Assembly: GCF_000008665.1 (NCBI RefSeq)
Contig: NC_000917.1
Location: 1,890,001 to 1,922,000 of the forward strand
DNA from: Archaeoglobus fulgidus DSM 4304
GTDB taxonomy: Archaea > Halobacteriota > Archaeoglobi > Archaeoglobales > Archaeoglobaceae
Length of the DNA: 32,000 bases
Direction: 5' to 3'
Position numbers and translations under genes: made by a program. The notes beneath the pieces were generated by a model that was not told the DNA's origin, did no database searches, and saw only the letters and a list, made by a program, of their open reading frames with translations. Shown in pieces: positions 4,034 through 23,036 of the stretch. Each line of letters begins with the position of its first letter. The first letter of the stretch is position 1.

Positions 4034-5164
4034 GCTGCAGAGCGAGGAGGAAGGACACAGCAAGAAGTCCGGCGGAGAGGAGCAGCGTGGAGTTCCAGCT
4101 CGCCATACTCTCGAACAAAACTATCAGCACAACCGAACCCACCTGAGAGAACAGCCATAGAGAGGAGTTGGCGGTTCCGGCAAACTGCTCTCCAACTGAA
4201 GTTGCAGATAAGTCGAGGGCAAGTGGAAGGGCAGAGATGAAGAAGAATCCCAGAACGAAGAGCACAGCTGCCACCATTGCCATACCGAAGGCGATTGCGT
4301 GGATATAAAACAGCACAGCTGAGATTATGAAGCATAAATAGAGGAAGGGCTTTCTTTTGCCGGCCCTGTCAGATAAGGCTGGAATGATAATGCTGCCAAA
4401 AATCCCGCCCAGAAGGAAAGCTGTGGCTGTAAGTCCAGCAGTCTCCACAGTTAAGCCATGCTCCTCCAGAACCGGCTCAACCCAAGTGAGGTAGGCTGTG
4501 AATATCCCCACCCCAATGAAGGCAATGACGGAGAGAATCACAACGTTTCTGTTTTTAAGCACCTCTAAGTACTCCCTCAGCCTGTACTCCTCCTCCATCT
4601 CCCCTCCAGTCTCCTTGCCCAGCAAGTAAAAGAAAACCAGCACGACGAAGGCGAAGATGCCGTAAATCAGCAGCATGCTCTCGAAACCAATGCTTACCGT
4701 CAAAGCCGGGGTCAGGCCGAGGCCGACAATTGTTCATATGAAAAGGGAGATGCTCCCCAGACCAGTTGCAAGTCCTGCCTCCTCGGCAGGGAACCAGCTC
4801 TTGACAAGATGCTGTTGAATATGAAAGGCTGCCCCACAGCGGTTAGAGTTTGGAATGCCAGCAGCATTTCAAAGGTTGCTGCAAAGGCCCTCAGCAGGCC
4901 AAAAACGGCAAAGAAGGCACTTCCCAGCAGAACCGCTTTCCTGAACCCCCTTCTGTCAACGTAGTAGCCTACTGGAAGAGCGAGGACTATGAAGACGATT
5001 GGAAAAACGGCAGAAAGCAGCCCGACTTCCGCATCCCCCACACTGTAGATTTCCTCCACAATGGGCAGGATGGGCGAGAAGGTAATCCACATGATCTGCG
5101 AAACGATGCCCGCAAGGATGTACATTGCAAGAACGACCCATCTATATGAATTCATAATAAACAA
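4023..5164 (-). pseudogene. MFS-type transporter disrupted by a 1-nt frame offset and an in-frame TGA
   Basis: ORF-track pieces 4712..5164 (N-terminal half) and 4023..4703 (C-terminal half) are both polytopic and MFS-like. My codon walk shows the N-terminal frame losing sense after ...GQPFIFNSI (about 4806..4815). The frame of the C-terminal piece reads LVKSWFPAEEAGLATGLGSISLFI, then TGA (4734..4736), then TIVGLGLTPAL-TVSIGFES. The likely true start is the ATG at 5155 (MNSYRWVV...), 10 nt after the rSAM stop. Confidence 0.7.
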
Positions 5165-6304: not shown

Positions 6305-6570
6305 CCTCCGGCCACCGGTGGAAAAACAGCGATTCTGGCATTCTCACTGAGCTTCTCAATCATCTCATCCTTTATGTTTCTGCCGTTTACCGTTATTATT
6401 CTGTCGTCCCTGAAATTCCCCCTCTCGTCGAAAACCTCCTTGAGGAAGTCTTTTCCGAGCTTCTCCGCAGCAGCCATGAAAGCTCCCCTTAGCGTGCTGT
6501 CGCACTCAACCTCTATGCTCTTCCCGTACTTTTCTCTGAGCGTGGCGTAGAACTCTATTCTAACCTTCAC
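6301..6570 (-). CDS. MoaD/ThiS-family ubiquitin-like small protein with a C-terminal Gly-Gly
   Basis: 89 aa. MKVRIEFYATLREKYG... ends in ...ARIAVFPPVAGG followed by the stop. Length and the FPPVxGG terminus fit MoaD-type sulfur carriers. GTG start, with a TATA-like CTTTTATTGG about 20-30 nt upstream. Confidence 0.75.
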   Translation of the reverse strand: MKVRIEFYATLREKYGKSIEVECDSTLRGAFMAAAEKLGKDFLKEVFDERGNFRDDRIITVNGRNIKDEMIEKLSENARIAVFPPVAGG

Positions 6571-6604
6571 AAAAAGAGTAGTCCAGAGCCAATAAAAGCC
6601 TTCC

Positions 6605-6620
6605 TCACGATGGTTCGTGA
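6605..6620. promoter_or_regulatory. Perfect inverted repeat TCACGA-tggt-TCGTGA abutting the TATA-like element of the ribK promoter (candidate operator)
   Basis: Read directly: 6605..6610 TCACGA, 6611..6614 spacer, 6615..6620 TCGTGA. It is followed by TATAAAAACCTTTAAATTTTTT (6621..6642). The ATG at 6664 is about 27 nt from the TTTAAAT box. Confidence 0.45.
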
Positions 6621-6663
6621 TATAAAAACCTTTAAATTTTTTGAGGTGCTTCTCATATATGAG

Positions 6664-7311
6664 ATGCTCGAAGTCCTCAAGGCCTTGGCGATGATGAACG
6701 CGACAAGGAAGGTCGTGAAAATAAGCTCAAAGGAGCTTGCAGAGCACATAGGGCAGAGTCTGCAGACAGCTGCGAGAAAACTGAAGGAGCTCGAAGATGA
6801 AGGGCTAATAGACCGCACACTCACCAAAGACGGGCAGTTTGTGGTGATAACAGAGAAGGGGAAGCAGCTTCTCTACAAGGAGTACATGGACTACAAGAAA
6901 ATTTTCGATGACGAGGGCACGATTAAAATAAAGGGAGAGGTTTTCAGCGGAGTTGGGGAAGGGAGATACTACGTCTCTCTTGAGGGTTACAGGAAGCAGT
7001 TCAGGGAGAAGCTAGGCTTCGACCCCTACCCGGGCACGCTCAACCTCAGAATTCCGAAGGAGGAAATGTACTTCAGGAGAAGGCTGGATGAGGAGAGGGG
7101 AATCCTTATCGAAGGTTTCTCGACTGAGGACAGAACCTTTGGAGAGGTTAAGGCATTCAAGTGCAGAATAAACGGTATCGAGGGGGCAATTGTGATTCCG
7201 AAAAGAACGCACTATCCGGCGGAAATTCTCGAGGTAATATCTCCGGTAAAGCTCAGAGATAAGCTCGGATTGAAGGATGGGGACTTCGTGGAGGTGGAGG
7301 TGATTTTATGA
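6664..7311 (+). CDS. ribK: CTP-dependent archaeal riboflavin kinase fused to an N-terminal winged-HTH domain (RbkR-type bifunctional regulator/kinase)
   Basis: The C-terminal half (GEVFSGVGEGRYYVSLEGYRKQFREKLGFDPYPGTLNL...) matches the MJ0056-type kinase pattern. The N-terminal ~85 aa (ISSKELAEHIGQSLQTAARKLKELEDEGLIDRTL...ITEKGKQLL) looks like a wHTH. The ORF track starts at 6610. I prefer the ATG at 6664 because 6610 lies inside the promoter palindrome. Confidence 0.85.
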   Translation: MLEVLKALAMMNATRKVVKISSKELAEHIGQSLQTAARKLKELEDEGLIDRTLTKDGQFVVITEKGKQLLYKEYMDYKKIFDDEGTIKIKGEVFSGVGEGRYYVSLEGYRKQFREKLGFDPYPGTLNLRIPKEEMYFRRRLDEERGILIEGFSTEDRTFGEVKAFKCRINGIEGAIVIPKRTHYPAEILEVISPVKLRDKLGLKDGDFVEVEVIL

Positions 7312-8024
7312 TACTCGACTTTGAAGAGTCGTTGAGGGCTTTCAGGAAGGGCTCACCAGTGCTGATATACGACTTTGAGGATAGAGAGGGGGAAACGGAC
7401 ATAGCCATTCCCGCAATCCACGTGGGGAAGGATGAAGTTGCGATGATGAGAATTGATGGAGGAGGGCTGATCTGCGTTGCAATACACCCAGTAGCTGCGG
7501 AGAAGCTCGGCCTGCCGTTCATGCACGATGTGCTGAGAATTGCGAGTGAGAAGCTGCCGGAAATAAGGAAGGTTGCAGACGCGGACGACATAAAGTACGA
7601 TTCGAGAAGCTCCTTCTCGCTCTGGGTTAACCACAGGGACACCTTTACGGGAATAACCGACGTTGACAGAGCGCTGACAATAAGGAGAATTGGAGAAGTG
7701 GTTGACGAGGTTATGATGGGCAAAAAGGTTGATTTTGGCAGGGAGTTCAGAAGTCCGGGGCACGTTGCGCTGCTGAGGGCTGCGGACAAGCTAACCTACG
7801 AGAGGGTGGGGCAAACTGAGCTCAGCGTTGCCCTTGCGGAGATGGCTGGAATAGCTCCAGCAGTGGCGATCTGCGAGATGCTGGATGCTGAGACTGGCAA
7901 GGCTCTGACTAAGGAGAAGGCCATGGAGTATGCGGAGGAGAAGGGCATACCGTTCATCGACGGGAGGACGATAGTTGAGCACTACCGGAAATTCAGGGAG
8001 GTTGAGGTGAGCCTGTTCGTCTAA
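7308..8024 (+). CDS. ribB: 3,4-dihydroxy-2-butanone 4-phosphate synthase
   Basis: 238 aa. PVLIYDFEDREGETDIAIPA...GGLICVA... is the typical DHBP synthase signature. ATGA overlap with ribK (7308..7311). Confidence 0.9.
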   Translation: MILDFEESLRAFRKGSPVLIYDFEDREGETDIAIPAIHVGKDEVAMMRIDGGGLICVAIHPVAAEKLGLPFMHDVLRIASEKLPEIRKVADADDIKYDSRSSFSLWVNHRDTFTGITDVDRALTIRRIGEVVDEVMMGKKVDFGREFRSPGHVALLRAADKLTYERVGQTELSVALAEMAGIAPAVAICEMLDAETGKALTKEKAMEYAEEKGIPFIDGRTIVEHYRKFREVEVSLFV

Positions 8025-8081
8025 ACCTTTCTCGAAGGTTTTCGGGGATACGGTTATATCTCCTGAACTCCTTCTAATTTC

Positions 8082-8924
8082 ATGTTCCAGTCAGACTTAA
8101 AGCTGATAGTGTTCCAGCACGGATTTTTCGGGGAGCGCTTTGTGGCCAACCTGATGAACTATCCCAACTCCTGCCCGTCTTACGGGGCATGTGGAATTGA
8201 TGGCTGCACACAGTGCAAGGAGGGGCTTTACAACTTCTCCAAAAACATAATAGCCGTTTTTTCGATGCCCGACCCGACAACAATGCCCGACTTCATTGAG
8301 AACGCTGAAGACTTTTTGCCAAAGGTTATTCCAGAAGCAGACATTGCGGTTGCGATCAACCTCCATCCTGACGTTCTCGCAGTAATGCCTGAAAAGCTTA
8401 AGGGGAAGGTTAAGGCCCTCATTGTTCCCGTTGAGGAGCCAAGGTGGTGCTCTCCCGGCCTGGCGAAGCAGATAAGGGAGAAGTGCGACGAGCTTGGCCT
8501 TGAGTTTGCCGCCCCAAAGCCCTTCTGCAATCTAAGGCCAAGTGAGGAACATCCAACAATTAACAGAATGATTGAGGAGATGAGAATCGGCTACCCTGAG
8601 TTCGAAATTGAGCTGCTTGAAGACGGCAAAGCCTACGTGAGAATCTCAAGGTCTCAACCGTGCGGCTGTGCGTACTACATAGGAGTAAAGCTCAGGGGAT
8701 TCGACTTCAGTGAGGTGAAGGAGGGAAAAATGAGGGAGCTCTGGAATGTTGTTGCTGAAGCCCACCACAGCTATCCCTGCACCGCAAGCATGGAGAGGGA
8801 CAACGAATACAATGAAACTCTGCTCCACGTCGGTGGTTACATAGCGAGGCACGCTGTAAACAGAGCTTTGGGCTATGAGGGGGATGAGGATATTCCTGAG
8901 CACATCAAACACATCGTTCTCTGA
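8082..8924 (+). CDS. Uncharacterised Cys-rich cytoplasmic protein (possibly DUF166-type; family not verified)
   Basis: 280 aa. Cys cluster NSCPSYGACGIDGCTQCKEG, and later SQPCGCAYY. A TATA-like TTATAT lies about 25 nt upstream of the ATG (leaderless-type start). The 3' end overlaps the convergent kinase gene by 20 nt. Confidence 0.75.
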   Translation: MFQSDLKLIVFQHGFFGERFVANLMNYPNSCPSYGACGIDGCTQCKEGLYNFSKNIIAVFSMPDPTTMPDFIENAEDFLPKVIPEADIAVAINLHPDVLAVMPEKLKGKVKALIVPVEEPRWCSPGLAKQIREKCDELGLEFAAPKPFCNLRPSEEHPTINRMIEEMRIGYPEFEIELLEDGKAYVRISRSQPCGCAYYIGVKLRGFDFSEVKEGKMRELWNVVAEAHHSYPCTASMERDNEYNETLLHVGGYIARHAVNRALGYEGDEDIPEHIKHIVL

Positions 8925-10640
8925 ACCTTTTTGGCAGCTTTACGACAAACATTGCCCCGCTCGGCTCGTTGTCCCTGACCTCTATGCTTCCTCCATAGAG
9001 CTCAACCATCTTTTTGACGATGAAAAGGCCCAAGCCTGTGCCATAACCTGCGGAGAATCCCTCCTCGAAAATCTTCTCCTTAAGCTCATCTGGGATGCCC
9101 TTTCCGTTGTCCCTGACAACGAGCACACCCCATCCGTTTTCAGCGTAGGTCTCCACGCTTATCTTCACATCATCCCTGCCTGAGTGCTTTATCGCATTGT
9201 TGATGAGGTTGAAGACCACAGTTCTGACATTCTCGTTAGCCAAAACCGTCACGTCCTCAAGGTCAAGATCGATCTCAGCCATTTCTCTGAAGGTTGCAGC
9301 AATCTCTCGAACAACTTCTGTAAGATTTATCTCCTTCCTTACATCTCCAGCCATTTCAAGATTTTTCACCTCGTAAATCATCCTCGAAATCCTGTCTATC
9401 TTTGAAAGTGCAGTTTCAAGCAGCTTTTCATCTTTAAGCTCAATGGCAGCCCTTATTACGGTTAAATCGTTGAGAATGTCGTGTCTAAGCATTTTGTTTA
9501 GCAGCGATAGGTGCTCGCTCTTCCTCCTCAGCTCATCGGTCAGAATGTGTATTCTGGTTGTGTCCAAAGCCGTTGAGGCGACAGCTGGTTTTCCATCGTA
9601 ATCAATTCTCACAAGCCTGACCGTTACCCATCTGACCTCTCCGCTCTTCGTCACTATCCTAAAGCTGATGTCTTCCGCCCTGCTTATGCCCGACTCCACT
9701 TCCCGATACTTTTTCGAGACGAAGTCCCTGTCTTCGGGGTGTATCAGCAGTTCAAGGCCTTCCAATTCGCTAAGCTCATGCTTTCCAAAGCCGGTAACGC
9801 TCTCGAAAGCCTCGTTGGCGTAAACAATCCTGCCGCTCTGGACTATGTGAATGGGCGCCAAGGACTTCTCAATCAGCGACCTGTGGAACTCCTCGCTTTT
9901 CTTCAATTCTGTGATGTCGATTGCGGTTATAGCTACTGCAGATCTGCCGTTCAAAGATATCCTGCTTCCCCTAACGCTCGCCCATATCTCTCTTCCCGAT
10001 TTTGAGAATACTCTGAAATCGTGGGACTCCACATCGCTTTCTCCGGAAATAAGCCTTAGGTACTTCTCCAGAACTGCATTCCTGTCATCGGGATGTATGA
10101 AAAACTCGAAAGGATTTACTCCGTTCAATTCCTCCCTCGTATAACCCGTTATCTCCTCGAAGGCCCTGTTGGCGTAAACGAAAACACCGTCCTGAACAAT
10201 CGCCACAGGTGCGACTGACTCCTCAATCAGCGACCTGTGGAACTCCTCGCTCTCTTTCAGCCTGGCCTGAAGCATTTTGTTGGCTGTAATGTCTATCCAG
10301 TTTCCCACACCAAATCTTTTTCCCTCAATCTCTACCGGAACGATAAAGCCCCAGACCCACCTCACCTTTCCGTCTTTCGTGATGTACCTGTTTTCCATGA
10401 AGACCTTCTCCCCTTTCAGCCCTTTTAAGTAGTTCTGGATAATCATTTCGTGTTCTTCCTCAGGAGCAAGCCTGAATACTCCAATTCTGTAAATTTCATC
10501 CTTTGAGTAGCCCGTAAACGTTTCAACGATTTTATTTACATATCTTATTTTTAAATCCTCATCAACAACGAACACTCCCACCAGGGAATTCTCCACAACT
10601 TCTTTCCAGAATCCAGAGTTATTAATCACAATACTATTCA
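8905..10640 (-). CDS. Cytoplasmic sensor histidine kinase with three PAS-like domains
   Basis: Two PAS repeats begin SEEFHRSLIE. H-box MLRHDILNDL, N-box NLINNAIKHS, G1 VRDNGKGIP, G2 GTGLGLFIV. I moved the start to the ATG at 10640 (MNSIVINN...). The longer track ORF (to 10731) would cover the divergent promoter and the start of the neighbouring gene. Confidence 0.85.
9868..9897. repeat. 30-nt exact direct repeat, copy 1, inside the PAS-domain duplication
   Basis: CTCAATCAGCGACCTGTGGAACTCCTCGCT occurs at 9868..9897 and again at 10222..10251. The period is 354 nt, or 118 codons. Confidence 0.9.
10222..10251. repeat. 30-nt exact direct repeat, copy 2
   Basis: Identical 30-mer to 9868..9897. 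On the minus strand it encodes part of SEEFHRSLIE. Confidence 0.9.
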
Positions 10641-12084: not shown

Positions 12085-13020
12085 TCAGCCCTCTCTCACA
12101 GCTTTCCTCACATTTTCAAGCAGCTGCAAAGCCAGCTCCTGAGAGGGGAAGGAGAACAGCCCACAATCAGGGCCGATGTAAGCAAGCAAATCTCCAAAGC
12201 GCTCTTTTGCCTTGCTGATCCTCTCCGCAATTTTCTCCACAGGCTCTATTTCATCGATTGCGAGGGAGATTAGCTCCTCATTGCCCCACGCATTAACGCC
12301 GTGCAAGGCGTTGAACTCGGCTATTATTCCGTCAATATCGCTCCTCGCAACCCCGATTCTGAGCTTTTTTTCCGCTGATGCAACAGCCTCAGCATCAATG
12401 AAGTCCATGTTCTCTGGCTTTTTAGCGCACTCAATGCCGATAACATCTACAGACGTTTCAAGAATCTTCTCGTAGTAGAGCGGCTCGTGAAGGTGAATCT
12501 GCACGTCCTGCTTAACTTTGTAGTCCAGAGCTTTCTGTAAAAGTTCCTCATCCGGCTGCAAGTCCGGAGCGATTCCGAGGCTGGGCTCGTCGATGCTTAT
12601 ACAAACGACATTTTCGTGCTTTGCCGCATTCTCCACAAACCTTCTCACCGACTCTGCAAGGTTCAGCAGAATGTCCTCGTAAATCACGCCCCCAAACTCC
12701 CTGTAGTAGAGCTCAAAGGGGCCGGTGATGCAGACCCTCACAGCCTCAACGCTCATTTTTTCAACATACTCAAGCTCCGGAATTACGGCCTTCCTTTCGT
12801 CTATAAGGTAGGGCTCCACCTGGTTGGCCTTTATGGGCTGCATGAACATCTCTATCATGTCCCTGAACTGCGGATAAGTAGGGACGTCGAGAACCTTCGC
12901 CTTCATGAGGAAAGCTCTCTGAACCATCTCCTCGTATTCTTTCGTGTGGAGGTTTCGCTCCACCCACTCCCTCGTAATCCCCTTGGGAAGGGGAAAGCTG
13001 CCGATATCGTCGAGCATCAT
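12085..13020 (-). CDS. MetE-like (cobalamin-independent methionine synthase C-terminal-domain family) protein
   Basis: 311 aa with ISIDEPSL, IGIEC and GPDCGLFSF, which parallel the MetE IDEP, IE and PDCGL motifs. The exact activity is uncertain. Confidence 0.6.
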   Translation of the reverse strand: MMLDDIGSFPLPKGITREWVERNLHTKEYEEMVQRAFLMKAKVLDVPTYPQFRDMIEMFMQPIKANQVEPYLIDERKAVIPELEYVEKMSVEAVRVCITGPFELYYREFGGVIYEDILLNLAESVRRFVENAAKHENVVCISIDEPSLGIAPDLQPDEELLQKALDYKVKQDVQIHLHEPLYYEKILETSVDVIGIECAKKPENMDFIDAEAVASAEKKLRIGVARSDIDGIIAEFNALHGVNAWGNEELISLAIDEIEPVEKIAERISKAKERFGDLLAYIGPDCGLFSFPSQELALQLLENVRKAVREG

Positions 13021-13021
13021 G

Positions 13022-13321
13022 TTATTTCTCTATAATTCCTCCCCTTATGGCAAGCCTCTCAATCTGGTCTCTCAATTCCTCCAGATTGTCCATAAGCTCT
13101 CTCCAGTTGTCTTCACTGGTAGCATAAGTTTCTCTCAGCTCTCTCAGCCTGAGCTTTATTCTTCTCACCTGATCAGCGTAAATCTCCTCATTCTCTGTGC
13201 CGTAGAACATGTTTCCGATTCTACCGATAGCGGCCCTCAGAAGCCTTATTCTCTCCTCAACATCTCCGCTGTAGTCGAAAGATTCGAGAAGTTCCTCAAG
13301 ATGTTCTTTTATTGAAACCAT
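13022..13321 (-). CDS. Small acidic coiled-coil protein, unknown function
   Basis: 99 aa (HLEELLESF...RRIKLRLRELRETYATSEDNWRELMDNLEELRDQIERL). It is the first gene of a tightly spaced 99aa / MetE-like / MarC string with 1-2 nt gaps. An AT-rich box lies about 30 nt upstream. Confidence 0.6.
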   Translation of the reverse strand: MVSIKEHLEELLESFDYSGDVEERIRLLRAAIGRIGNMFYGTENEEIYADQVRRIKLRLRELRETYATSEDNWRELMDNLEELRDQIERLAIRGGIIEK

Positions 13322-13365
13322 ATAATTGAGTTATTTTCCTGTTAAAAAATTTTGCACCTGACAAA

Positions 13366-14190
13366 CTACTTCTCCCAGCCACCTCTTTTGGTAAATAGGT
13401 AGATGAAAATCAAGGCTGAAGCTGTTAGAATGACGAATGCGGACGTTTTGTCTATCTTTATCTCAGGTTCCACCTTGAACTCTAGAACACACTTTGTTTT
13501 GCACTGGTAAACGCTGTAATCCACGCCTTTAAACTGCTGAACTCCCCTGTATGCTGCGTTGCTTTGATTGGTAACCGGAAGAGTCGTAAAAATGAGAACA
13601 GTCTGGTTTTCAGCTCCACTTAGTGAAAGCTTTGGCTTAACCAGCCTGTAGGTGATGGATACCTCACCCGTGCTGTTCGCGGGGACGATGAGCTTCTTCA
13701 GAGTGAGATTTCCATTGAGATCAGAAAAATCCAGAAAACTCAGAGAGGAGTCGGAGATTTTCAATCCCGTATGCTCGGGGAGGGGGATTGCAAGGTCTCC
13801 CTCGAAGTTCTCCCCTCCTGAATTGGTTATGAGGACTATCTCAAAAACTTCGAGGCTCGGCTGGACGATTGCATGCCTCATCATGCTCAGATTTTCCGTT
13901 CTGTTTGTGAACAGAAGGTTGAACGTAACGGTTTTGTTACTGTCAAGCCTCAAATCTTTGACGAAGGTTTTGTTGAGCGCAAAAAGCGTAAGCGTGTAGT
14001 TTCCTGCCGGTAAGCTTATGATCGAACCATTTTTTACGGTTTCAACCTTTGACAGGTTCTCCCCGAATATGCCCAGCTCAGCCGTGCCGTTGTACCCCTT
14101 AATGAAGACCTGAAAGTGGAGCTCTGCAGCTTGCACAGTCAACAATCCGGTTATGATCAAAAGCAGCGGCAGCAAAGTTAGCTTCCTCAT
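13366..14190 (-). CDS. Secreted, C-terminally anchored protein rich in N-glycosylation sequons
   Basis: 274 aa. Signal peptide [24 protein letters not shown]-terminal TM SAFVILTASALIFIYLF followed by TKRGGWEK. I counted 12 N-x-S/T sequons. The start overlaps the GT2 stop (ATGA at 14187..14190). Confidence 0.75.
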   Translation of the reverse strand: MRKLTLLPLLLIITGLLTVQAAELHFQVFIKGYNGTAELGIFGENLSKVETVKNGSIISLPAGNYTLTLFALNKTFVKDLRLDSNKTVTFNLLFTNRTENLSMMRHAIVQPSLEVFEIVLITNSGGENFEGDLAIPLPEHTGLKISDSSLSFLDFSDLNGNLTLKKLIVPANSTGEVSITYRLVKPKLSLSGAENQTVLIFTTLPVTNQSNAAYRGVQQFKGVDYSVYQCKTKCVLEFKVEPEIKIDKTSAFVILTASALIFIYLFTKRGGWEK

Positions 14191-15149
14191 TCAACCACCC
14201 TCTGCATAGCTTCCCACTCAACCTCCCTTTTTCTGACAAAGGAGAATAAAGCTCTTACTGCGGCATACTGTAGCATGATTGTGTGGATGAAAAGTCCGAG
14301 AGTCACCTTTACTTTGGAAAGTCTGCGGAAGTGGTAGATAAGCAGGAGAGGAGAAAGGAGAAGAAGGGGCAGGAAAAGGATGGGTATGAAGGTGAGGGTG
14401 AGAGCCATGTACCAAGAGAGCCTCACTCCCCACGGGGCCTTCCTCATTTCCTTCCTGTACCTCCACAGCTGCAAACCCCCGTAATACCACCTCTTTCTCT
14501 GGTTGTAGAGGTCTTTCCATGTTAGCGGAGACTGCTCGTATATTTTTGATGTTCTGACGAGAATTGCCCTTCTCCCTTTAGCATGCATTCTTGTCGCAAA
14601 GTCGGCGTCCTCGGCAACAGCCCACTCGTTCAGCCCCTCCTCCATCAAAAACTTTGCCCTCAAAACCCCAATTAAACCGTTAAATTGCCTGAACCTGCTT
14701 TTCCCAAGGAGGAAGTTGATTAGGTAGTACTCGGCCTCAACAGTCTCGGTGACAAGGTTGATGGGGTTGCTGATGTACCTCTTTGTTGAAGCTATGTAGC
14801 AGTCCTCGCAGCCCTCAAGGGCTTTGACGCACTCAACCACGAAGTTCTTCTCGGGCCTCGAATCTACGTCGAAGATTGCTACGTAGTCTGGTTTGAAGCT
14901 GGAGAGGCGCTTGATGGCATCGTTTATAGCCCCAGCCCTCTTCCCCCTTCTGTCCTTCCTGAAAACAACCTCTGCTCCGAGTTTCTCAGCCAGCTCAGCC
15001 CTTCTGTCATCCTTACCGTTGGAGTCAATTACATAGACAAACCTCACTTCAAAATCATCGTAGTCAAGGGACTTCAGGTGCTCGATGCTTCTTCTGATTA
15101 TTTCCTCATCCTCAAAGGGCGAGACGGGAACAACTACGGCCAGCCTCAT
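14187..15149 (-). CDS. Family-2 glycosyltransferase with processive-type motifs and C-terminal TM segments
   Basis: 320 aa with the D...DxD (FDVDSRP), AEDAD and QRKRW (QxxRW) motifs. Hydrophobic C-terminus [23 protein letters not shown]. The start overlaps the gatB stop (15146..15149). Confidence 0.85.
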
Positions 15150-16561
15150 GAGAGCATTTCTTCTATGAGCTTTGCCGTATCAGCAGGATCAGCCCTTCCG
15201 CGAGTTTTTTTCATAACCTGCCCGACGAGGAAGTTCAGGGCCTGCCTCTTTCCGCTGAGGTAGTCCTCAACAGCCTTCGGATTCTCCTCAATGGCCTCTT
15301 TGCAGAATTTTATGATTTCTTCCTTTGGAATGGCGAAAAGCCCCTTCTTCTGGATGATTGCATCAATCTCTCCACCCTCATCAAGCTTCGTCCTTATGAC
15401 CTCAACAACTCCCTTCTCCGTTATCCTATCCTCTTCGAAGTACTTCAGCAGCTTGGCAAACTCCTCCGGCTTGAAAACCTCCCAGCACTTGGCAAAGCTC
15501 CAGTCTCTGTAATTAAGCTCTCCTCTCAGCACGTCAACAATCCAGCTTGCCGCAAGTTTTGGATCAACCAGCTTCGCAACCTCTTCAAAGTAGTCTGCCA
15601 TCTTTACGTCGAGAATCAGCACCTTGGCAAAGTTATCACCAATGCCGTACTGCCGCTTTAGCCTCTCCCTCTTCTCCTCTGGCATTTCTGGCAGAGTGCC
15701 CTCAACCTCCCTGACAATCTCCTCCGTAAGAACCGGCACCAGATCAGGCTCGGGGAAGTAGCGGTAGTCCTGCTCTTCCTCCTTGCTTCTGAGCGAAACC
15801 GTGATGTTCCTTGCTTCATCAAAGTGCCTCGTTTCTCTAACAACACTTCTCCCCCTCTGCAGGAGGTTCTTCTGCCTCATAATTTCGTAGCTCAGGGCCT
15901 TTTCAACGCCCTTGAAGGATGAAATGTTCTTTATCTCCACTCTGCCACTCCCTCTGATGGAGATGTTGGCATCAACCCTCATGGCCCCCTCCAGATCCCC
16001 ATCGAAGACTTCGAGATACTCAAGAATCATCCTGAGCTTGTTCAGGAAAAGCCTCGCCTCCTTGGGCGAGTTCATCACCGGCTCTGTAACAATTTCAAGC
16101 AGAGGGGCGCCGCTTCTGTTGTAGTCGATGAGAGAGTACTTTGCCGTCGTAATCGAACCTTTGTAGCTGAGCTTTCCAGGGTCTTCCTCCATGTGCACCC
16201 TCTTGAGCTGAATTCTCTTCTCCTGACCGTCGAGCTCAATGGTGACGTAACCACCAAGGGCCAAGGGGCGGTCGTACTGGCTGATTTGAAATCCTTTCGG
16301 CAAATCGGGGTAGAAGTAGTTCTTCCTGTCGAAGACTGTGAAGGGCTGTATTTCTGCGTTTAAGGCCATGGCCACCTTCACAGCAGCTTTAACAGCTTCC
16401 TTGTTGATGACGGGCATAGCCCCCGGCATTCCGAGGCATACTGGACAGACGTGGGTGTTGGGAGGGCTTTGGTGATAGTTAAGGGGGCATGAGCAGAAAA
16501 GTTTAGTTCTGAGCCTGTTAAGCTGAACGTGAACCTCAAGCCCTATCACGACGTCATCCAT
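15146..16561 (-). CDS. gatB: Asp/Glu-tRNA(Asn/Gln) amidotransferase subunit B
   Basis: [15 protein letters not shown]...[13 protein letters not shown]... is the canonical GatB N-terminus. I chose the start at ATG 16561. The track ORF extends to 16624, across the divergent alkA promoter. Confidence 0.93.
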
Positions 16562-16600
16562 AATGGCTGCACTAAAAGGCGTATTAAAAAGGTTGTGAAC

Positions 16601-17488
16601 ATGTGGAGAATTGAGCTGAAGCATGCGGTAAACTGGGAACTGAAGATGAAATTCTTCGTTCTGCCTGAGCTGCCTACTCCGGATGTTGTTGAAAGCGGTG
16701 TGTGGAGAAGAGCCATCGTGCTGGATGGCAGGGCAGTTGCGGTGATGGCTTATCCGGAGAGTGAGAGAACGATTGTGGTTGAGGGGAATTTTGAGAATAG
16801 GGAGTGGGAAGCGGTCAGGCGTAAGCTTGTCGAATACTTAGGCCTGCAGAATCCGGAGGAGCTTTACAGGTTTATGGACGGTGATGAAAAGTTAAGGATG
16901 CTAAAAAACAGGTTCTACGGGTTTGGCAGGGCTGGTTTGATGTCGATGAGCGTTTTTGAGGGCATTGCCAAGGCCATCATACAGCAGCAAATCTCTTTCG
17001 TAGTTGCGGAGAAACTTGCTGCAAAAATTGTTGGGAGGTTTGGTGATGAGGTTGAATGGAATGGGCTGAAATTTTACGGCTTTCCCACTCAGGAGGCCAT
17101 TCTGAAAGCTGGGGTAGAGGGGCTGAGAGAGTGCGGGCTGAGCAGGAGGAAGGCGGAGCTGATTGTGGAGATTGCCAAGGAGGAGAATCTGGAGGAGTTG
17201 AAGGAGTGGGGTGAAGAGGAGGCATACGAGTATCTCACTTCCTTCAAGGGCATAGGCAGGTGGACAGCTGAGCTTGTTCTGTCAATGGCCCTCGGCAAGA
17301 ACGTTTTTCCAGCAGATGATCTTGGCGTGAGGAGGGCGGTTTCAAGGCTTTACTTCAATGGGGAGATTCAGAGTGCGGAAAAAGTGAGGGAGATTGCGAG
17401 GGAGAGGTTTGGCAGGTTTGCGAGGGACATACTGTTCTACCTCTTTCTCTACGACAGATTTTTTAGTAAAAAGACAGAATTAGTTTGA
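16601..17488 (+). CDS. alkA: DNA-3-methyladenine glycosylase, AlkA type (HhH-GPD superfamily)
   Basis: HhH motif [13 protein letters not shown] followed by the catalytic-Asp context [11 protein letters not shown]. Starting at ATG 16601 (MWRIELK...) gives 295 aa, which matches my recollection of the characterised archaeal AlkA length. Confidence 0.88.
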
Positions 17489-18039: not shown

Positions 18040-18086
18040 GTTAATAATAACCATGATAATAATCTTAATCATTTTTTATGGAAAAA

Positions 18087-18094
18087 TTTAAATT
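18087..18094 (+). promoter_or_regulatory. TATA-like box (TTTAAATT) for the Leu-rich microprotein gene
   Basis: It is centred about 25 nt upstream of the ATG at 18115, which is the spacing expected for a leaderless archaeal transcript. The T-run ATTTTTTAT (18071..18079) just upstream probably terminates the HTH-CBS gene. Confidence 0.45.
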
Positions 18095-18114
18095 CTTTGT
18101 GAACTATAGTGTGT

Positions 18115-18297
18115 ATGGGGTTCCTGAGCAGCTTGTTGAGTGGCCTTTTAGGACTTTTGCAACCAATGCTGGAGCAGCTTCTTCAAACCGAGCTTGGACA
18201 GCAACTGTTGATGTTTTTGCTCAGCCTGATGAGCCAGCTGCCACCCGGACTGGTTGAGTTTCTGAACAACCTGCTTGGAATGCTTGGACTCGGTTAA
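18115..18297 (+). CDS. 60-aa extremely Leu-rich acidic microprotein, possibly a two-helix membrane hairpin
   Basis: MGFLSSLLSGLLGLLQPMLEQLLQTELGQQLLMFLLSLMSQLPPGLVEFLNNLLGMLGLG has 23 Leu, 8 Gly, 6 Gln, 3 Glu and no K/R/H/D. There is no underlying nucleotide tandem repeat. It has its own TATA-like box and a T-rich 3' flank. The track ORF starts at GTG 18109. Confidence 0.55.
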   Translation: MGFLSSLLSGLLGLLQPMLEQLLQTELGQQLLMFLLSLMSQLPPGLVEFLNNLLGMLGLG

Positions 18298-18350
18298 TGA
18301 AAATAATTTAATTTATCCTTTGTATTTTTTATAAATCAGAGTCTCTACAC

Positions 18351-20576
18351 TCATCCCTCTCCGCATCCAGCTATCCAATTGAAGTCCCAACCTGGATTGT
18401 CACGAGAACTCTGTTCCATCAGCGGAATCTCTTTTAGCAGAGTTACCACCACTTCCGTAAGCTGGTCAAGAAGTTGGAGCATTCTGTAGCCAAAAATCTC
18501 TCTTTCACTGTAAGAAAGGTACTGTCTGTGATTTAGCAGGTAGTTGATACCCGTACTGGCGTCAGGTGGACCGACCACATTTGGCAGCTGCAATAGAACT
18601 TCCGAAATCAGATTTCCGAGTGCATTGTTGAGAGTTGAGTTCAGCATTATTCTGTGGACGATTTCGAAGTTATCTTTAAACTGGACAAACGTCGAAATTA
18701 TGAAGGGGTGGTTGACTGTCTTACCGCAGTTAACCACCAGCCAGAGCACCTCGTGCATGTATGGCAGGAAGTCCGTTATAAAATCATTGAAGGCTCTGTT
18801 CAGATTCACAACATCGCTCTGGGTTGGATATCTCAAGCTCCAAGCAGCCAGCTCTTCACCTGTCGTTTTTGCGATGTAAACAGCATTGTTCAGCAAGTAA
18901 TAGAGCCACGTGTCCATGTAGTTCCTCCAGCCTGCCTCGTCACTCGGATAGTTCGGAACGGTTGTGACGATGGCTGTGAATGGATGTATTCCATAGCGGT
19001 GCCCCATCATAATCCCTATGGCATGCTCGTTGTCAGCAATTAGTCCCACAAAGCCGACGACGCCGAGACCGCCTTTTGGATCTGCAAATAACCCCAACGC
19101 TCCATGAGTTAAGGCCTGTTCAGTTGAGGGGTTTAAAGCACCACAACCAGCATTTGAAACCAGTACACCGTATGGGCCCTCGTGCTGGTCGTAGTGTGTC
19201 GCTCTCATGAAGTCGTCGAGTTCGCCCCCGCCGAAAAGCTGAATGACCATCGCAGCCAGAAAACCAAGTGCGTGGTCGGGTATGTTCATCTGGACAAAGG
19301 GACCTACCCTGTAACCCGAAAAGTAAGTACAATCGTGTCTTCCTTTAAGCGGACCATCTGGGTCACCGTAACAAGCCCCTCCAACGTCTCTACCACACAT
19401 AGGCGTGGTACTTCCAACAGCAATACACGCTCCATCCCAGTCAGCGTCGTCAAAGTTGCCGTAAATACCCTCCCTGTGGCAGTTGGGGTCTGTGCAGTAG
19501 TCATCTAACCCATACTTCCAGATTGTAACGCTGGCTCTGTTTCCAGTAAACTTTTGAACCACGGGAATTGGATACGGTTTCAGCACGGAGTTCTCATCAA
19601 CGTACCAGTTCACCCTCACCCAGTCCGCCCCGCCTGAGTAGTACATTCTGCCGACGAGGGTTATGTCGTAGCTTCCGGGGGTTATGGCAACGTTCTCGGC
19701 CAAAATCGCACGATTGGTTGTTGTGGTGTAGGCGTTGCAGTTAGTCATCACGTCCTCAATTTTAGCAACAAAATTCACTCTCAACTTGTCACTCAGTCCA
19801 ACATTCTTTGGAATGAAGCTAAGTTTAGCGATGCCGCTCGAATTCGTCCAAGCCCCTCCCAAGAATATCCTCTGCGAGTCGAACTCCGCGTAAAACTTGA
19901 CGGGATAATCGGGAACAGGGTTGCCGTTGCTCACAACTTTTGCGTATAATGTTATCGTGTCGGTGTCGAAGAAGCCGTCGTAGTTTCTCGGATTCCCTTC
20001 AGCCTTCACGACGCTTACCGGAAGCGGGTTGGCAACGCTGACCTCGATCTCTACGTAGTCTGACGTCGGATGAGTATACTCCAAACTTCCGTCATGCCCT
20101 ACCGCCAGAATGTGTGCCTCGCAGCTCGCTGTAAAGCTACCGCTTATCCAAGTCCAACTCCCGCTGGTCGTTTCTTCTAATTTCTGCCAGCTGCTACCGT
20201 CCCAGTAGTAGAGCGTGACGTAATCGCCATCCTCCTGCGCGTGTCCCCTCCACCTCACGACGACGTTTGCGTTCTGAGGGATGCTGAAGTAGAAGTGGTG
20301 GGTGTCCTGACCTCCCGAACTGAAACCGCTGCTGTCAGGGCTTTCAATGAGGTCGATATCAGCTTGCGTGAAGGGCGTCCTGTCGCTCGTGTAGTAAGGG
20401 TTGCTCGGAAGGTCTCTCGTGTCCCTGTGCCAAGCTTTTGGGTGAGGCGAGTCCGGAGTAACCTCAAGTCCGCCTATGGAGGAGAAATTAACTGTATACG
20501 TTTTGGCGTCGGCTATATGCGAAATCTGAATAAGTAAAGCTAAAGCTAAGATTATAATTATTTTCACACTTTTCAC
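18351..20576 (-). CDS. Large secreted multidomain protein, unknown function (signal peptide, beta-rich N-terminal modules, Cys-rich core, helical C-terminus)
   Basis: 741 aa. Signal peptide MKSVKIIIILALALLIQISHIADA/K. Ig-like-looking segment ITLYAKVVSNGNPVPDYPVKFYAEF...GGAWTNSSGIAKLSF. Cys cluster DDYCTDPNCHREG...DGACIAVGSTTPMCGRDVGGACYG...HDCTYF. No C-terminal TM. GTG start, with an AT-rich TATA-like region at 20592..20605. Confidence 0.85.
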   Translation of the reverse strand: MKSVKIIIILALALLIQISHIADAKTYTVNFSSIGGLEVTPDSPHPKAWHRDTRDLPSNPYYTSDRTPFTQADIDLIESPDSSGFSSGGQDTHHFYFSIPQNANVVVRWRGHAQEDGDYVTLYYWDGSSWQKLEETTSGSWTWISGSFTASCEAHILAVGHDGSLEYTHPTSDYVEIEVSVANPLPVSVVKAEGNPRNYDGFFDTDTITLYAKVVSNGNPVPDYPVKFYAEFDSQRIFLGGAWTNSSGIAKLSFIPKNVGLSDKLRVNFVAKIEDVMTNCNAYTTTTNRAILAENVAITPGSYDITLVGRMYYSGGADWVRVNWYVDENSVLKPYPIPVVQKFTGNRASVTIWKYGLDDYCTDPNCHREGIYGNFDDADWDGACIAVGSTTPMCGRDVGGACYGDPDGPLKGRHDCTYFSGYRVGPFVQMNIPDHALGFLAAMVIQLFGGGELDDFMRATHYDQHEGPYGVLVSNAGCGALNPSTEQALTHGALGLFADPKGGLGVVGFVGLIADNEHAIGIMMGHRYGIHPFTAIVTTVPNYPSDEAGWRNYMDTWLYYLLNNAVYIAKTTGEELAAWSLRYPTQSDVVNLNRAFNDFITDFLPYMHEVLWLVVNCGKTVNHPFIISTFVQFKDNFEIVHRIMLNSTLNNALGNLISEVLLQLPNVVGPPDASTGINYLLNHRQYLSYSEREIFGYRMLQLLDQLTEVVVTLLKEIPLMEQSSRDNPGWDFNWIAGCGEG

Positions 20577-20694
20577 GAAAATTCGATAATCAAATTAATT
20601 ATTAAATGTTTCGTATTGTTGATGGTAATGATAAAGTAAATTATCCCCAGTTTTTCGAACTAAGCCTGAAGAGCTTATTTGTTACCAAAAAGCT

Positions 20695-21147
20695 TTAGGT
20701 GTAAATCAACGAGAATTTCTTCCCCAACTCAGCCAGTGCCGCAAACATCCACTTGAAAAACTGCAGCGCATTGTATGTCAAGTTCGGTGCCTGATTCTGG
20801 CAGTAACCTCCAGTCTGAATGCACTCGTAGCTTTTCCTCCAGATGTAGGCTATACCCCAGTTTGCGTTATCGTCTCCAAACACGTAGGTGGCATTTCCAG
20901 CAACCTTCTGCCAGATTCCTACACTGTAGCGCATCATCGTGTCATTCGCAGAAACTATGTTCACTGTATCCCTGAAAACATCTGAAAAGTACTTCAAAAA
21001 GCCGGAAATGTAGTAGATGCTCTCAGCAGTTTTCTCGGCAAGAGTGTCGTTTACAGCAATTGCCCTCATCACCTCAGCGTTTAGCATGAAAAGCCACTGA
21101 AAGAAATCTATGAAGTACGAGAAGGCAATCCAGACGTCAAGCGGCAT
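20695..21147 (-). CDS. Paralog 4 of an unrecognised ~145-aa protein family
   Basis: 150 aa. Shared core AGNATYVFGDDNANWGIAY. An SD-like GGTGATGGAGG lies directly upstream and overlaps the stop of paralog 3. A T5 run follows the stop. Confidence 0.8.
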   Translation of the reverse strand: MPLDVWIAFSYFIDFFQWLFMLNAEVMRAIAVNDTLAEKTAESIYYISGFLKYFSDVFRDTVNIVSANDTMMRYSVGIWQKVAGNATYVFGDDNANWGIAYIWRKSYECIQTGGYCQNQAPNLTYNALQFFKWMFAALAELGKKFSLIYT

Positions 21148-21153
21148 CCTCCA

Positions 21154-21624
21154 TCACCCCGGAAAGTAATTGGGAAACACCTTGAGCGCATCGGCCATCA
21201 GTATCACCAGATGCTTTGCCGCATAATACAGATTTGAAACGAAGTCCGGGTTGTTTGAAACGCTCTCCGCCATCACTTTTACCAAAAAGGCTGTCCCATT
21301 ATCCCCTGAAACATCCCCAAATATGTATGTCCCGTTTTTTGCAGCAATCTCAACCACTTCAGCAAACTCATTCTCAAGCGTTGCGTTGTGGTTAATCTGC
21401 CAGATAAACCCATTCGTATCGAAAAGGAGCTTTCTGAACCATGAAATTGCCGCATCAACGTGGTACCAAATCTCCCAGAAGCTCTGATAGTTCCCCCTCG
21501 AAGCGTTGAGAGTGGTTTCGTTGTTCCCCACGTATTTTAGATAGATGAAAAAGTCGCCGAGAGCCCTGAGCAGTGCGGAGAGGCCCTGCAGCATCACGTT
21601 GCCAAGCTCGGCTGCTGTTGGCAT
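21154..21624 (-). CDS. Paralog 3 of an unrecognised ~145-aa protein family
   Basis: 156 aa. Shared core [19 protein letters not shown]. The upstream GAGGTGAT overlaps the stop of paralog 2. Confidence 0.8.
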
Positions 21625-21633
21625 TCGATCACC

Positions 21634-22062
21634 TCACAGGTACTCAAAAACTTTCACAAAGTAGATTATCGTGCTATTCACCGCCCTCGCAAATTTCACC
21701 GCCATATCCTCTGAAAGCTGCTGGTTTTGACTAAGCTCGATGTAGGAGTGCTTGGCAATGTAGGCCATCCCGCTCTCCCCCTCAACCGTGCCGAAAAAGT
21801 GGTAGGAGTTCTCCGACAGAGTGTGGAGGACATCGGTGAAATTTGCCATCGCAGTAGCATTGTTTGCGGTAACACCGAGAATTGTCGCCAGAAACTTTGT
21901 TCCCCACAGCAGAAGGGATAGCTGCCCGTAAATGAAATTAGTATGTTCTGGAATGAGATGCGCATTTATGGGCTCAAGCAACCCGTAAATCAGGACAAAG
22001 ATGTCTGATATTGGCCTTAGAATCGCATTTAAGGCAAAATCTGTCGCTGCTGCTATGGGCAT
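21634..22062 (-). CDS. Paralog 2 of an unrecognised ~145-aa protein family
   Basis: 142 aa. Shared core SENSYHFFGTVEGESGMAY. The upstream GAGGTGA (22067..22073) contains the TGA stop of paralog 1. Confidence 0.8.
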   Translation of the reverse strand: MPIAAATDFALNAILRPISDIFVLIYGLLEPINAHLIPEHTNFIYGQLSLLLWGTKFLATILGVTANNATAMANFTDVLHTLSENSYHFFGTVEGESGMAYIAKHSYIELSQNQQLSEDMAVKFARAVNSTIIYFVKVFEYL

Positions 22063-22066
22063 TCCA

Positions 22067-22498
22067 TCACCTCAGCGTTGAATTGATGTTTTCAAGCATC
22101 CTCATCGCCACCTCCACACCGCTCTTGGCTAAATTCCAAACCTTCAAGGCGAATTCATCATCAATCAACCCCACAAAATGGCTCATTACCGCAGACAGAC
22201 CCTTCTGACCAGTTTCGTTGCCAAAAATCGTTTCCGCGTTCCCTCCAATATAGTTTATCGCGTAGCTGATGTTCTTCATCGCGGAAACGTTTTTGGATGC
22301 AACATCTAAGGCTCCTCCATCCCCTACAAAGGGCTTGATGAACCAGTAACCGAATCCTGCAGCGTGAATTGAAACATTCCACACTTCCGCAACATCAACA
22401 GAGTTGTTAAGCAATAAGCTGAATGCGTTCGTCAGCAACTCGAAATTGGCCAGAACAATCTGCATTAAGGCGTTGGCGAAGTCTGCTGCGTTTGCCAT
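22067..22498 (-). CDS. Paralog 1 (first gene) of an unrecognised ~145-aa protein family
   Basis: 143 aa. Shared core GGNAETIFGNETGQKGLSA. There is no SD. A TATA-like TTTTTTATTAG is centred about 25 nt upstream of the ATG. Confidence 0.8.
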   Translation of the reverse strand: MANAADFANALMQIVLANFELLTNAFSLLLNNSVDVAEVWNVSIHAAGFGYWFIKPFVGDGGALDVASKNVSAMKNISYAINYIGGNAETIFGNETGQKGLSAVMSHFVGLIDDEFALKVWNLAKSGVEVAMRMLENINSTLR

Positions 22499-22517
22499 TG
22501 GAGAGATTTGTCATTAT

Positions 22518-22528
22518 CTAATAAAAAA
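22518..22528 (-). promoter_or_regulatory. TATA-like box of the four-paralog operon
   Basis: The minus strand reads TTTTTTATTAG, centred about 25 nt upstream of the ATG at 22498. Confidence 0.45.
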
Positions 22529-22607
22529 CTTTTCGCATTGTTAGAATTAAATGTTATGATGAGCATCAACACTTATTTGCTCTATGACTGATTTTTTCAG
22601 AGCCATG

Positions 22608-23036
22608 CTAATTATTGGCCTTTCTGTAATCTACGTAGCTCTTAACGAAGTCTCTCACCATCCCGTAAAACAGCTTTGCTGAGAAGTAAAGGACAGCAAC
22701 GGGCAGCACGATGCTTAAGGAGTTCTCGACTCCGAGAAACTGCAATGCAACGATATAGGGAGAGAGAAGGAGGAAGTAAAGCGGTGTGAAAAAGGAAATT
22801 TTCCTGAAGAAGACTCTGCCGTAAATTTCGTTCATCATGTCCTGAAAACCCCTGTAAGCCTCTCTATCACCCGACAGCATGGCAAGCATGGAAAGCTCCT
22901 TGTATTCCTCAATTTCAGCCTCCATTCTGGCAATATCAAGCACGTAGCTGCTGAAAAATCTGATTGCCACTAATTCCTCAATTTTCTCAACAATAACTGC
23001 TACGAGCAGAGTTAAAAAAATTAAGAAATAGTTCAT
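22608..23036 (-). CDS. Small three-TM membrane protein with a long amphipathic or coiled-coil loop
   Basis: About 142 aa from ATG 23036: MNYFLIFLTLLVAVIV-EKIEELV...ARMEAEIEEYKEL...-FFTPLYFLLLSPYIVALQFL-...SIVLPVAVLYFSAKLF. The start overlaps the stop of the TauE-like gene (ATGA at 23033..23036). The track's longer 208-aa version reads through that gene in another frame. Confidence 0.65.
   Translation of the reverse strand: MNYFLIFLTLLVAVIVEKIEELVAIRFFSSYVLDIARMEAEIEEYKELSMLAMLSGDREAYRGFQDMMNEIYGRVFFRKISFFTPLYFLLLSPYIVALQFLGVENSLSIVLPVAVLYFSAKLFYGMVRDFVKSYVDYRKANN

Follow-up and report, generated by a model that had tools for sequence, protein, structure and literature searches.

The known surface assemblies of archaea include surface layers (S-layers), archaella, type IV pili, threads, cannulae and hami. 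We analysed a gene block of Archaeoglobus fulgidus DSM 4304 whose products, if they assemble as proposed here, would be an addition to these. It lies at positions 18,087 to 22,528 of a 32,000-nucleotide stretch (contig NC_000917.1, positions 1,890,001 to 1,922,000), which is called the window below. The block is made of a translationally coupled operon of four paralogs of ~145 amino acids (aa), here named S1 to S4, a separately promoted gene for a 741-aa protein, and a convergent gene for a 60-aa Leu-rich microprotein. According to the listing of open reading frames (ORFs) of the window, S1 to S4 and the 741-aa gene are all on the minus strand and the microprotein gene is on the plus strand. 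At 90% identity, the 741-aa protein belongs to a cluster of the same length that contains "Uncharacterized protein AF_2119" (O28161) of A. fulgidus VC-16, so we call it AF_2119; the tags AF_2123 to AF_2120 for S1 to S4 follow from gene order. Homology, sequon statistics, synteny, purifying selection and allele replacement were computed, and topology was derived by inference. In our judgement the chances are about even that the products form an Archaeoglobaceae-specific, glycosylated hetero-oligomeric envelope complex with a variable exposed head.

Comparison with described systems

Adhesin-tipped pili and pseudopili (FimH with FimA/F/G, the minor pilins of type IV pili, and GspG-K of the type II secretion system) resemble this locus in two ways: small paralogous subunits are encoded in one operon, and a large protein joins them via a copy of the subunit fold and bears a variable binding head. 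The fold differs, since it is predicted to be all-helical here, and there are four equally conserved subunits, not one major subunit with minor ones. S1 to S4 lack the traits of type IV pilins and archaellins, having no class III signal peptide ([KR]-[GA] site) and no hydrophobic N-terminal helix. No assembly ATPase, membrane platform, prepilin peptidase, usher or chaperone is among the precomputed Pfam hits of ~22 kb around the identical locus of A. fulgidus DSM 8774, and no secretion ATPase or other export machinery was seen near the locus.

Tetrabrachion, a surface glycoprotein of archaea, has a long helical stalk bearing large extracellular enzymes, which is similar in plan to what we propose. 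In the Tetrabrachion-protease complex of Staphylothermus marinus, however, the stalk is a single coiled-coil polypeptide with a signal peptide, whereas here there are five separate paralogous modules and no sequence relationship to it.

WXG100/Esx proteins are also small, tandem-encoded helical proteins without signal peptide, with a conserved motif in the central turn. They have ~100 aa and the motif WxG, whereas S1 to S4 have 142-156 aa, about five predicted helices and the motif FGxxxGxxG. There is no WXG100 Pfam match for S1 to S4 at E<=10 and there are no type VII secretion components in the locus; to our knowledge none are known in archaea. The initial annotation of this DNA had noticed a resemblance to such helical-hairpin substrates or to filament subunits, and none of the family features that we tried was found, which leaves the resemblance an analogy.

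Toxin-immunity and bacteriocin cassettes, like the present pair, combine a large secreted protein with a tiny hydrophobic one, and the two are swapped jointly between near-identical strains. The difference is that the present pair has no recognisable toxin or immunity domain and that its variability is highest in the N-terminal head and not in the putative active core.

Scans of all six proteins against Pfam, NCBIfam, PHROGs and PADLOC gave only sub-threshold noise (RP-C_C, GIPC1_GH2, Big_1). Profile searches of PDB sequences with the large family, the small family, the AF_2119 core alone and the modules of locus L013 (below) gave no match. The initial annotation assigned none of these genes to a family, which is true of characterised families for all six proteins and not of families in general: AF_2119 and most of its homologs have a precomputed match to PF27237 ("AF_1625_C"), a recent uncharacterised Pfam family that is named after AF_1625, a paralog in the same genome, and carries no function. 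PF27237 is not recorded among the precomputed Pfam hits of the small paralogs. In our rating, the system belongs to none of the kinds of surface or secretion system described for archaea, and the gene cluster is confined to one archaeal family.

A helical module present in five proteins

As the initial annotation had it, S1 to S4 are tandem and divergent (143, 142, 156 and 150 aa). They are true, old, divergent paralogs; their pairwise identity is 17-23%, with invariant N..N..FG..G positions. Alignment of the small-paralog profile with the C-terminus of the large family by hhalign scored 85% (E 5.8e-6, 81 columns), and with a 14-sequence C-terminal alignment it scored 95% (E 3.7e-8, 133 columns). 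Residues 11-152 of the small proteins are thereby aligned to residues ~587-721 of AF_2119. The hidden Markov model (HMM) of the small proteins also matches the C-terminus of every large homolog examined (E 1e-9 to 2e-3). Two features are aligned: the N-x-S/T that opens the third helix (N80 in S3, N646 in AF_2119) and a Gly-rich loop, which reads IFGDxSGxxG in the small family vs VGPPDASTG in AF_2119. These are the most conserved features of the family, and AF_2119 thus ends in a fifth copy of the S1-S4 fold. Another relation between the genes, in which S1 to S4 are silent cassettes converting the large gene, was rejected: identity is <20%, and the ORFs are intact and conserved.

Two further loci show how the module is used elsewhere. 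In locus L007, part of a metagenome-assembled genome (MAG) of Archaeoglobaceae, the large gene is surrounded by six small paralogs, two upstream and four convergent downstream (8613-9794 (+), 12474-14259 (-)). One of them, of 185 aa (9237-9794), begins with MLWCVLVVAIALLVIPVGA followed by DQDF; this is a classical signal peptide, and the family HMM aligns right after it. Locus L013, from an unrelated archaeal MAG (GCA_030605385.1), encodes two adjacent secreted, sequon-rich proteins of 928 and 1232 aa (4002-10505). The 928-aa protein (P0111), which came from the exhaustive HMMER search described below, has an N-terminal signal or anchor and three module copies interleaved with ConA-like "3-keto-disaccharide hydrolase" domains, and its 1232-aa neighbour has the same plan. 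These modules start near xDYP and most end in YPxxYGW. Alignment of the small-paralog profile with the six L013 intrachain modules scored 96% (E 3.7e-9).

AF_2119, the L007 paralog and the L013 proteins all have a signal peptide ahead of the module, which places it outside the cytoplasm wherever its topology can be read. Domains that form one chain in some organisms and separate proteins in others usually interact. The modules are fused in the L013 chains and split here, and this is our main argument that S1 to S4 and the tail of AF_2119 may assemble together.

The module is about as long as DUF7809 (PF25100), a 160-residue domain whose C-terminal half is matched by one of the six modules in L013 (E 1e-4 to 1e-3). 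The best score, 19.9 bits on a P0111 module, is below the gathering score of 27 bits, and neither S1 to S4 nor the AF_2119 C-terminus matches it even at E<=10.

N-glycosylation sequons

The initial annotation counted 18 N-x-S/T sequons in the 591 aa of S1 to S4 and set this against its own estimate of the chance rate. The count and the enrichment stand: composition-preserving shuffles (n=5000) gave 5.07±2.05 and none of the 5000 reached 18. Its chance rate of 0.5 per 100 aa was too low, as the shuffles give ~0.86. The 37 family members have 179 sequons in their 5500 residues (3.25 per 100 aa), while the composition-matched reversed motif [ST]-x-N occurs 47 times in the same residues, which is a 3.8-fold excess of sequons. 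Sequons hold 42% of the Asn of these members, vs ~12% expected. At the N80 column, 36 of the 37 members have a sequon, in which Ser and Thr interchange and the middle residue varies freely, and the directional excess is spread over many non-homologous positions.

We compared the density with 124 non-overlapping ORFs from six Archaeoglobaceae loci (~120 kb). At least 2 sequons per 100 aa were found only in the small family, in one fragment of a large-protein C-terminal module and in one other protein, which has a signal peptide. Besides the family, the window has a single sequon-dense ORF (13366-14190 (-)), encoding 274 aa with a signal peptide, a C-terminal membrane anchor and 12 sequons (4.4 per 100 aa). 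It has no Pfam family, and its start overlaps the stop of a family-2 glycosyltransferase gene (14187-15149 (-)).

Conserved gene cluster and exchange of part of it between strains

S1, S2, S3 and S4, always in that order, adjoin a large-family gene in 10 distinct Archaeoglobaceae loci (the window, L002, L007, L008/L009, L010, L011/L012 and L014-L017). The four subunits are equally conserved single-copy orthologs. The arrangement varies: in L002 the genes are in tandem, with a gap between S4 and the large gene of just 10 bp vs 118 bp in the window, in L007 the operon is convergent, and in the type with an allele of 806-828 aa the microprotein gene stands between S4 and the large gene. In the Archaeoglobus isolates and MAGs examined, the cluster always lies at one chromosomal site, between TauE and AlkA/GatB. 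The proposal of the initial annotation, that this is an undescribed extracellular or envelope system whose genes belong together, thus came through both of its own tests, which were membership in a characterised family and co-occurrence in other genomes.

L002 also has a second copy of the cluster (4791-8069), inverted and degenerate, in which small paralogs and the C-terminus of a large protein survive as fragments and a small ORF of 157 aa contains 11 sequons; this points to an earlier duplication followed by decay.

Two word-index searches with the small family found relatives only inside Archaeoglobaceae. For the large family, an exhaustive HMMER search of 1.84 billion representative proteins gave just 11 proteins at E<1e-30, seven of them full-length, and all those with a named source are from Archaeoglobaceae. 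Another ~55 weaker matches are nearly all to the N-terminal jelly-roll domain only. A scan of genome contigs found only three loci.

Comparison with A. fulgidus DSM 8774 revealed a sharp replacement. The flanks are 99.85% identical over 9.7 and 8.7 kb, and between positions 18046 and 20709 of the window there is no nucleotide similarity, with sharp breakpoints. The 2.66 kb with AF_2119 and the microprotein gene are replaced in DSM 8774 by 4.05 kb, which encode a divergent microprotein, an 806-aa large protein (36% identical) and a secreted, C-terminally anchored repeat protein of 415 aa. S1 to S3, and S4 to residue 137, have zero mismatches between the strains, so that one breakpoint falls in the last 13 codons of S4. 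Identity between the alleles is 17-39% in the N-terminal head, 41-83% in the core and 36-69% in the C-terminal module. Constant S1 to S4 with a swapped, head-variable partner are what diversifying selection on an exposed surface determinant would be expected to produce.

The secreted repeat protein has 411-420 aa, WxxxDG-type repeats (beta-propeller-like) and a C-terminal membrane anchor (L008 12416-13663 (-), also L010, L011 and L012); it is always found with the large allele of 806-828 aa and is absent from the VC-16-type cassette.

The large protein

AF_2119 corresponds to the initial reading in its signal peptide, beta-rich N-terminus, Cys cluster and helical C-terminus. By hydropathy (2.36 at residues 4-22) and sequence pattern (cleavage between IADA and KT) it qualifies as a Sec-type secreted protein. 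No other hydropathy window reaches 1.6, so there is no second hydrophobic segment, and a transmembrane segment between the core and the C-terminal module was looked for and rejected. Seven of its 11 Cys lie between residues 361 and 480, and long helices are predicted in the C-terminus (546-741).

In the AlphaFold2 model, residues ~90-300 are predicted with fair confidence as two beta-sandwiches; the predicted local distance difference test (pLDDT) score per 10-residue block is mostly 63-92 over residues ~100-300, with a single dip to 49. Foldseek with this model gave only generic matches, to CBM4, meprin MAM and Ig modules, all for the N-terminus, and Big_1 in the Pfam scan was sub-threshold.

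The core is very conserved. In 14 sequences drawn from all clades, its invariant residues include C384, C394, C402, C416, H465-E466, H518, H526, H531, D434, D515, R423 and R527. No Pfam or PDB-sequence match was obtained for the core even at E<=10, and AlphaFold2 does not fold it. This invariant pattern of Cys, His, Asp, Glu and Arg suggests a catalytic or metal site stabilised by disulfides.

Large genes without small neighbours are located beside glycosylation genes (L001 8414-9874 (-), L005 3751-5217 (-), L004 1874-3208 (-)). Two of them, of clade B (AF_1625-like), stand beside a divergent PMT_2 glycosyltransferase of the GT-C type, and the third stands beside a phosphomannomutase gene.

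The microprotein gene

As first annotated, the microprotein is encoded convergently and has 60 aa, 38% Leu and no Lys or Arg; counted from the ATG the gene is 18115-18297 (+), sharing a 53-bp 3' region with AF_2119, and from a GTG start it is 18109-18297 (+). Homologs adjoin the large gene on the opposite strand in 13 of 15 distinct loci and were not detected in L005 and L007. The gene was detected in nine of the 10 loci that have S1 to S4 and the large gene. The homologs have a common [LI]P.WL motif. Between the window and L002 the ratio of nonsynonymous to synonymous substitution rates (dN/dS) is 0.19 and the differences by codon position are 22/10/35; therefore it is a real gene under purifying selection, and a conserved one that ordinary gene callers may miss. 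Hydropathy revealed no clear transmembrane helix in its protein. L007 encodes another kind of microprotein, of 66 aa and transmembrane, whose gene overlaps the start of the large one.

Proposed complex and alternative explanations

We infer physical assembly, glycosylation and a surface location of the leaderless subunits in the following way. A ~150-residue, all-helical module would be used five times, in S1 to S4 and in the AF_2119 C-terminus, and the single coupled operon would favour equal amounts of S1 to S4. The five modules would associate after export, as they do within single chains of the L013 proteins, to form a stalk or scaffold holding the head and core of AF_2119 at the cell surface. 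The small subunits may be heavily N-glycosylated by AglB at the conserved sequons. The 60-aa Leu-rich protein is probably a membrane-proximal partner, assembly factor or anchor of the large protein. The exchangeable head might set adhesion specificity, virus receptor avoidance or strain competition, to give examples of surface roles. That the small proteins are extracytoplasmic and glycosylated, as first proposed, is supported along three independent lines, by their homology to the AF_2119 C-terminus, by the paralog with a signal peptide and by the secreted L013 modules, all at the level of sequence.

Several observations weigh against this complex. By ORF limits and hydropathy, S1 to S4 lack both a signal peptide and the coding room for one, and they contain no transmembrane segment. 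Their N-termini (MANAADF.., MPIAAATDF.., MPTAAEL.. and MPLDVW..) are without Lys or Arg, their maximal 19-residue hydropathy is 1.27-1.59, and acidic and basic residues lie inside that segment. We know of no archaeal route that would export such leaderless proteins. AF_2119 is clearly Sec-type, yet sequon-poor (0.4 per 100 aa). The structural models are poor, with a mean pLDDT of 52.8 for AF_2119 and of 59.8 for S3, for which about five helices are predicted. In two clade-B large proteins the position homologous to the invariant Asn reads N-P-S or T-P-S, and several sequons are at predicted helix N-termini (in S3, four of five at helix starts or loops); because of these two points the invariant Asn may be structural rather than, or as well as, a glycan site. 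According to a passage in PMC8342417, AglB excludes Pro after the sequon Asn. The large gene lacks adjacent small paralogs at the three loci L001, L004 and L005, and literature searches restricted to Archaeoglobus found no paper on these genes and no expression or proteomic data.

Two other readings of the ORFs were considered. Hidden N-terminal extensions with a signal peptide were rejected, since the ORFs of S1 to S4 extend only 2-4 codons upstream, and stop-codon readthrough fusing S1 to S4 was rejected, since the frames differ.

The same observations lead to the strongest alternative, that S1 to S4 stay in the cytoplasm, for instance as chaperones, regulators or storage-type helical bundles, and do not assemble with AF_2119 outside the cell; the sequon excess would then be a preference for helix N-capping or another structural preference, and adjacency would mean co-regulation only. 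The missing signal peptide, transmembrane segment and upstream coding room, the predicted position of the S3 sequons and the Pro that AglB excludes (same passage of PMC8342417) are all in its favour. It does not explain why the module stands behind a signal peptide in AF_2119, the 185-aa L007 paralog and the L013 proteins. A structural preference also agrees poorly with a 3.8-fold directional excess that has S/T interchange, a variable middle residue and many non-homologous positions, and in ~120 kb of Archaeoglobaceae DNA a comparable density was seen only in a secreted protein. So we regard the cytoplasmic alternative as unlikely.

A strain-competition cassette is the next explanation. AF_2119 would be a secreted antagonistic enzyme (archaeocin-like) with a toxic Cys/His core, the microprotein a membrane-associated immunity factor, and S1 to S4 conserved carrier or delivery parts. 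The joint replacement of large protein and microprotein by a 36%-identical pair between strains with 99.85% identical flanks is consistent with it, as are the own promoter and opposite strand of the adjoining microprotein gene and a core whose invariant His, Asp, Glu and Cys resemble those of an enzyme or metal site. However, neither the core nor the microprotein has similarity to a toxin, immunity or defence family in Pfam, NCBIfam or PADLOC, and the microprotein lacks a clear transmembrane helix. Variability peaks in the binding-type N-terminal head and not in the putative catalytic core, opposite to the pattern of polymorphic toxins, and the AF_1625-like paralog class is located beside a GT-C glycosyltransferase, not beside competition genes. 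This makes the cassette quite improbable in our opinion.

A domesticated or defective virus module, in which the small helical glycoproteins derive from the capsid or coat of a filamentous or spindle-type archaeal virus and the large protein is receptor-binding, is largely refuted and very improbable: small all-helical, sequon-rich paralogs with a large, cassette-exchanged protein of variable head recall virion gene modules by analogy, but there is no PHROG match, no BFVD structural match (best E 0.13), no relative of the large family or S3 in 2.9 million IMG/VR contigs, and no integrase, replication gene or tRNA in the neighbourhood, and the chromosomal position from TauE to AlkA/GatB is fixed in the Archaeoglobus genomes examined.

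Returning to the envelope complex, a fuller version of it can be put forward tentatively, as a possibility that we hold with low confidence. It would be a new surface appendage or stalk of five modules, four of them leaving the cell without signal peptide by an unrecognised route and being heavily N-glycosylated. The fifth would tether a swappable head with an orphan Cys/His catalytic or metal-binding domain, and the exchange of head and microprotein would set strain-specific surface interactions such as virus susceptibility, adhesion or antagonism. If the model of an envelope complex holds, the module defines an extracellular helical domain family that is new and occurs either as free subunits or as repeats within one chain, and the locus points to signal-peptide-independent export of glycoproteins in archaea, for which we know of no mechanism. 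VC-16 and DSM 8774 would be a natural two-allele system for surface variation in a hyperthermophilic sulfate reducer. Six A. fulgidus genes that have been "hypothetical" since genome sequencing, namely AF_2119 to AF_2123 and the one for the unannotated microprotein, would also gain a context.

Gene organisation and neighbouring genes

The coordinates of the features are collected in Table 1.

Table 1. Features of the AF_2119 to AF_2123 block, in window coordinates.
Feature	Position	Strand	Remarks
AF_2119 ORF, 741 aa	18351-20576	-	GTG start
Signal peptide, aa 1-24 (MKSVKIIIILALALLIQISHIADA, followed by KT)	20505-20576	-	hydropathy 2.36; n-h-c pattern in all full-length homologs
N-terminal head, aa 25-295	19692-20504	-	fast-evolving; predicted jelly-roll (CBM4/MAM-like) and Ig-like beta-sandwich
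Orphan conserved core, aa 296-545	18942-19691	-	54 invariant columns
C-terminal helical module, aa 546-741 and stop	18351-18941	-	fifth paralog of S1 to S4; N-x-S/T (N646); loop VGPPDASTG
S1, 143 aa (AF_2123 by gene order)	22067-22498	-	leaderless, predicted all-helical, 6 sequons; orthologs 38-100% identical, always operon-first
S2, 142 aa (AF_2122 by gene order)	21634-22062	-	3 sequons; Shine-Dalgarno (SD) site overlaps S1 stop
S3, 156 aa (AF_2121 by gene order)	21154-21624	-	5 sequons; SD overlaps S2 stop; AlphaFold2 model all-helical, low confidence
S4, 150 aa (AF_2120 by gene order)	20695-21147	-	4 sequons; last 13 codons within strain-variable cassette
Leu-rich microprotein, 60 aa	18115-18297	+	38% Leu, no K/R; own TATA-like TTTAAAT ~22-28 nt before ATG
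AT-rich promoter spacer upstream of S1	22499-22607	-	30% GC; TATA-like TTTTTTATTA ~25-33 nt before ATG; no SD site
AT-rich spacer between S4 and large gene, 118 bp	20577-20694	-	28% GC; T5 run after S4 stop; TATA-like TTTAATAA ~27-34 nt before GTG
Convergent terminator region of AF_2119 and microprotein gene, 53 bp	18298-18350	.	21% GC; T-runs on both strands

The transcript that begins with S1 looks leaderless, because it has a TATA-like box upstream and no SD site, as is expected of the first gene in an archaeal operon. The junctions from S1/S2 to S3/S4 read GAGGTGAtggaATG, TGAGGTGATCGAATG and GGGGTGATGGAGGATG, so that an SD site overlaps each upstream TGA stop, and the intergenic gaps read directly from the sequence are 4, 9 and 6 nt. 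The chaining of the paralogs was already noticed in the initial annotation, together with the T-run, the 118-bp gap and the AT-rich spacers, all of which we find again; the GC content of the spacers is 20-30%, vs 48.9% window-wide. Rfam and tRNA scans of the window found nothing. The AlphaFold and Foldseek check proposed at first was of use for the AF_2119 N-terminus, with its generic jelly-roll/Ig matches, and not for the S3 model, which has no Foldseek match in PDB or BFVD.

Upstream of S1, directly so in all Archaeoglobus loci, there is a gene for a 142-aa membrane protein (22608-23036 (-)), which overlaps the stop of a TauE-family gene. Its predicted order of a first transmembrane helix, a charged helical hairpin and two more transmembrane helices recalls, by analogy and with no Pfam match in support, small insertases of the Oxa1/DUF106 type.

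The flanking genes encode GatB, an AlkA-like glycosylase and a helix-turn-helix (HTH)-CBS protein. If the first start codon of each is used, the ORFs of GatB (minus) and of the AlkA-like protein (plus) overlap by 96 nt (16529-16624); the true starts are probably internal, because the gene calls of DSM 8774 use shorter versions.

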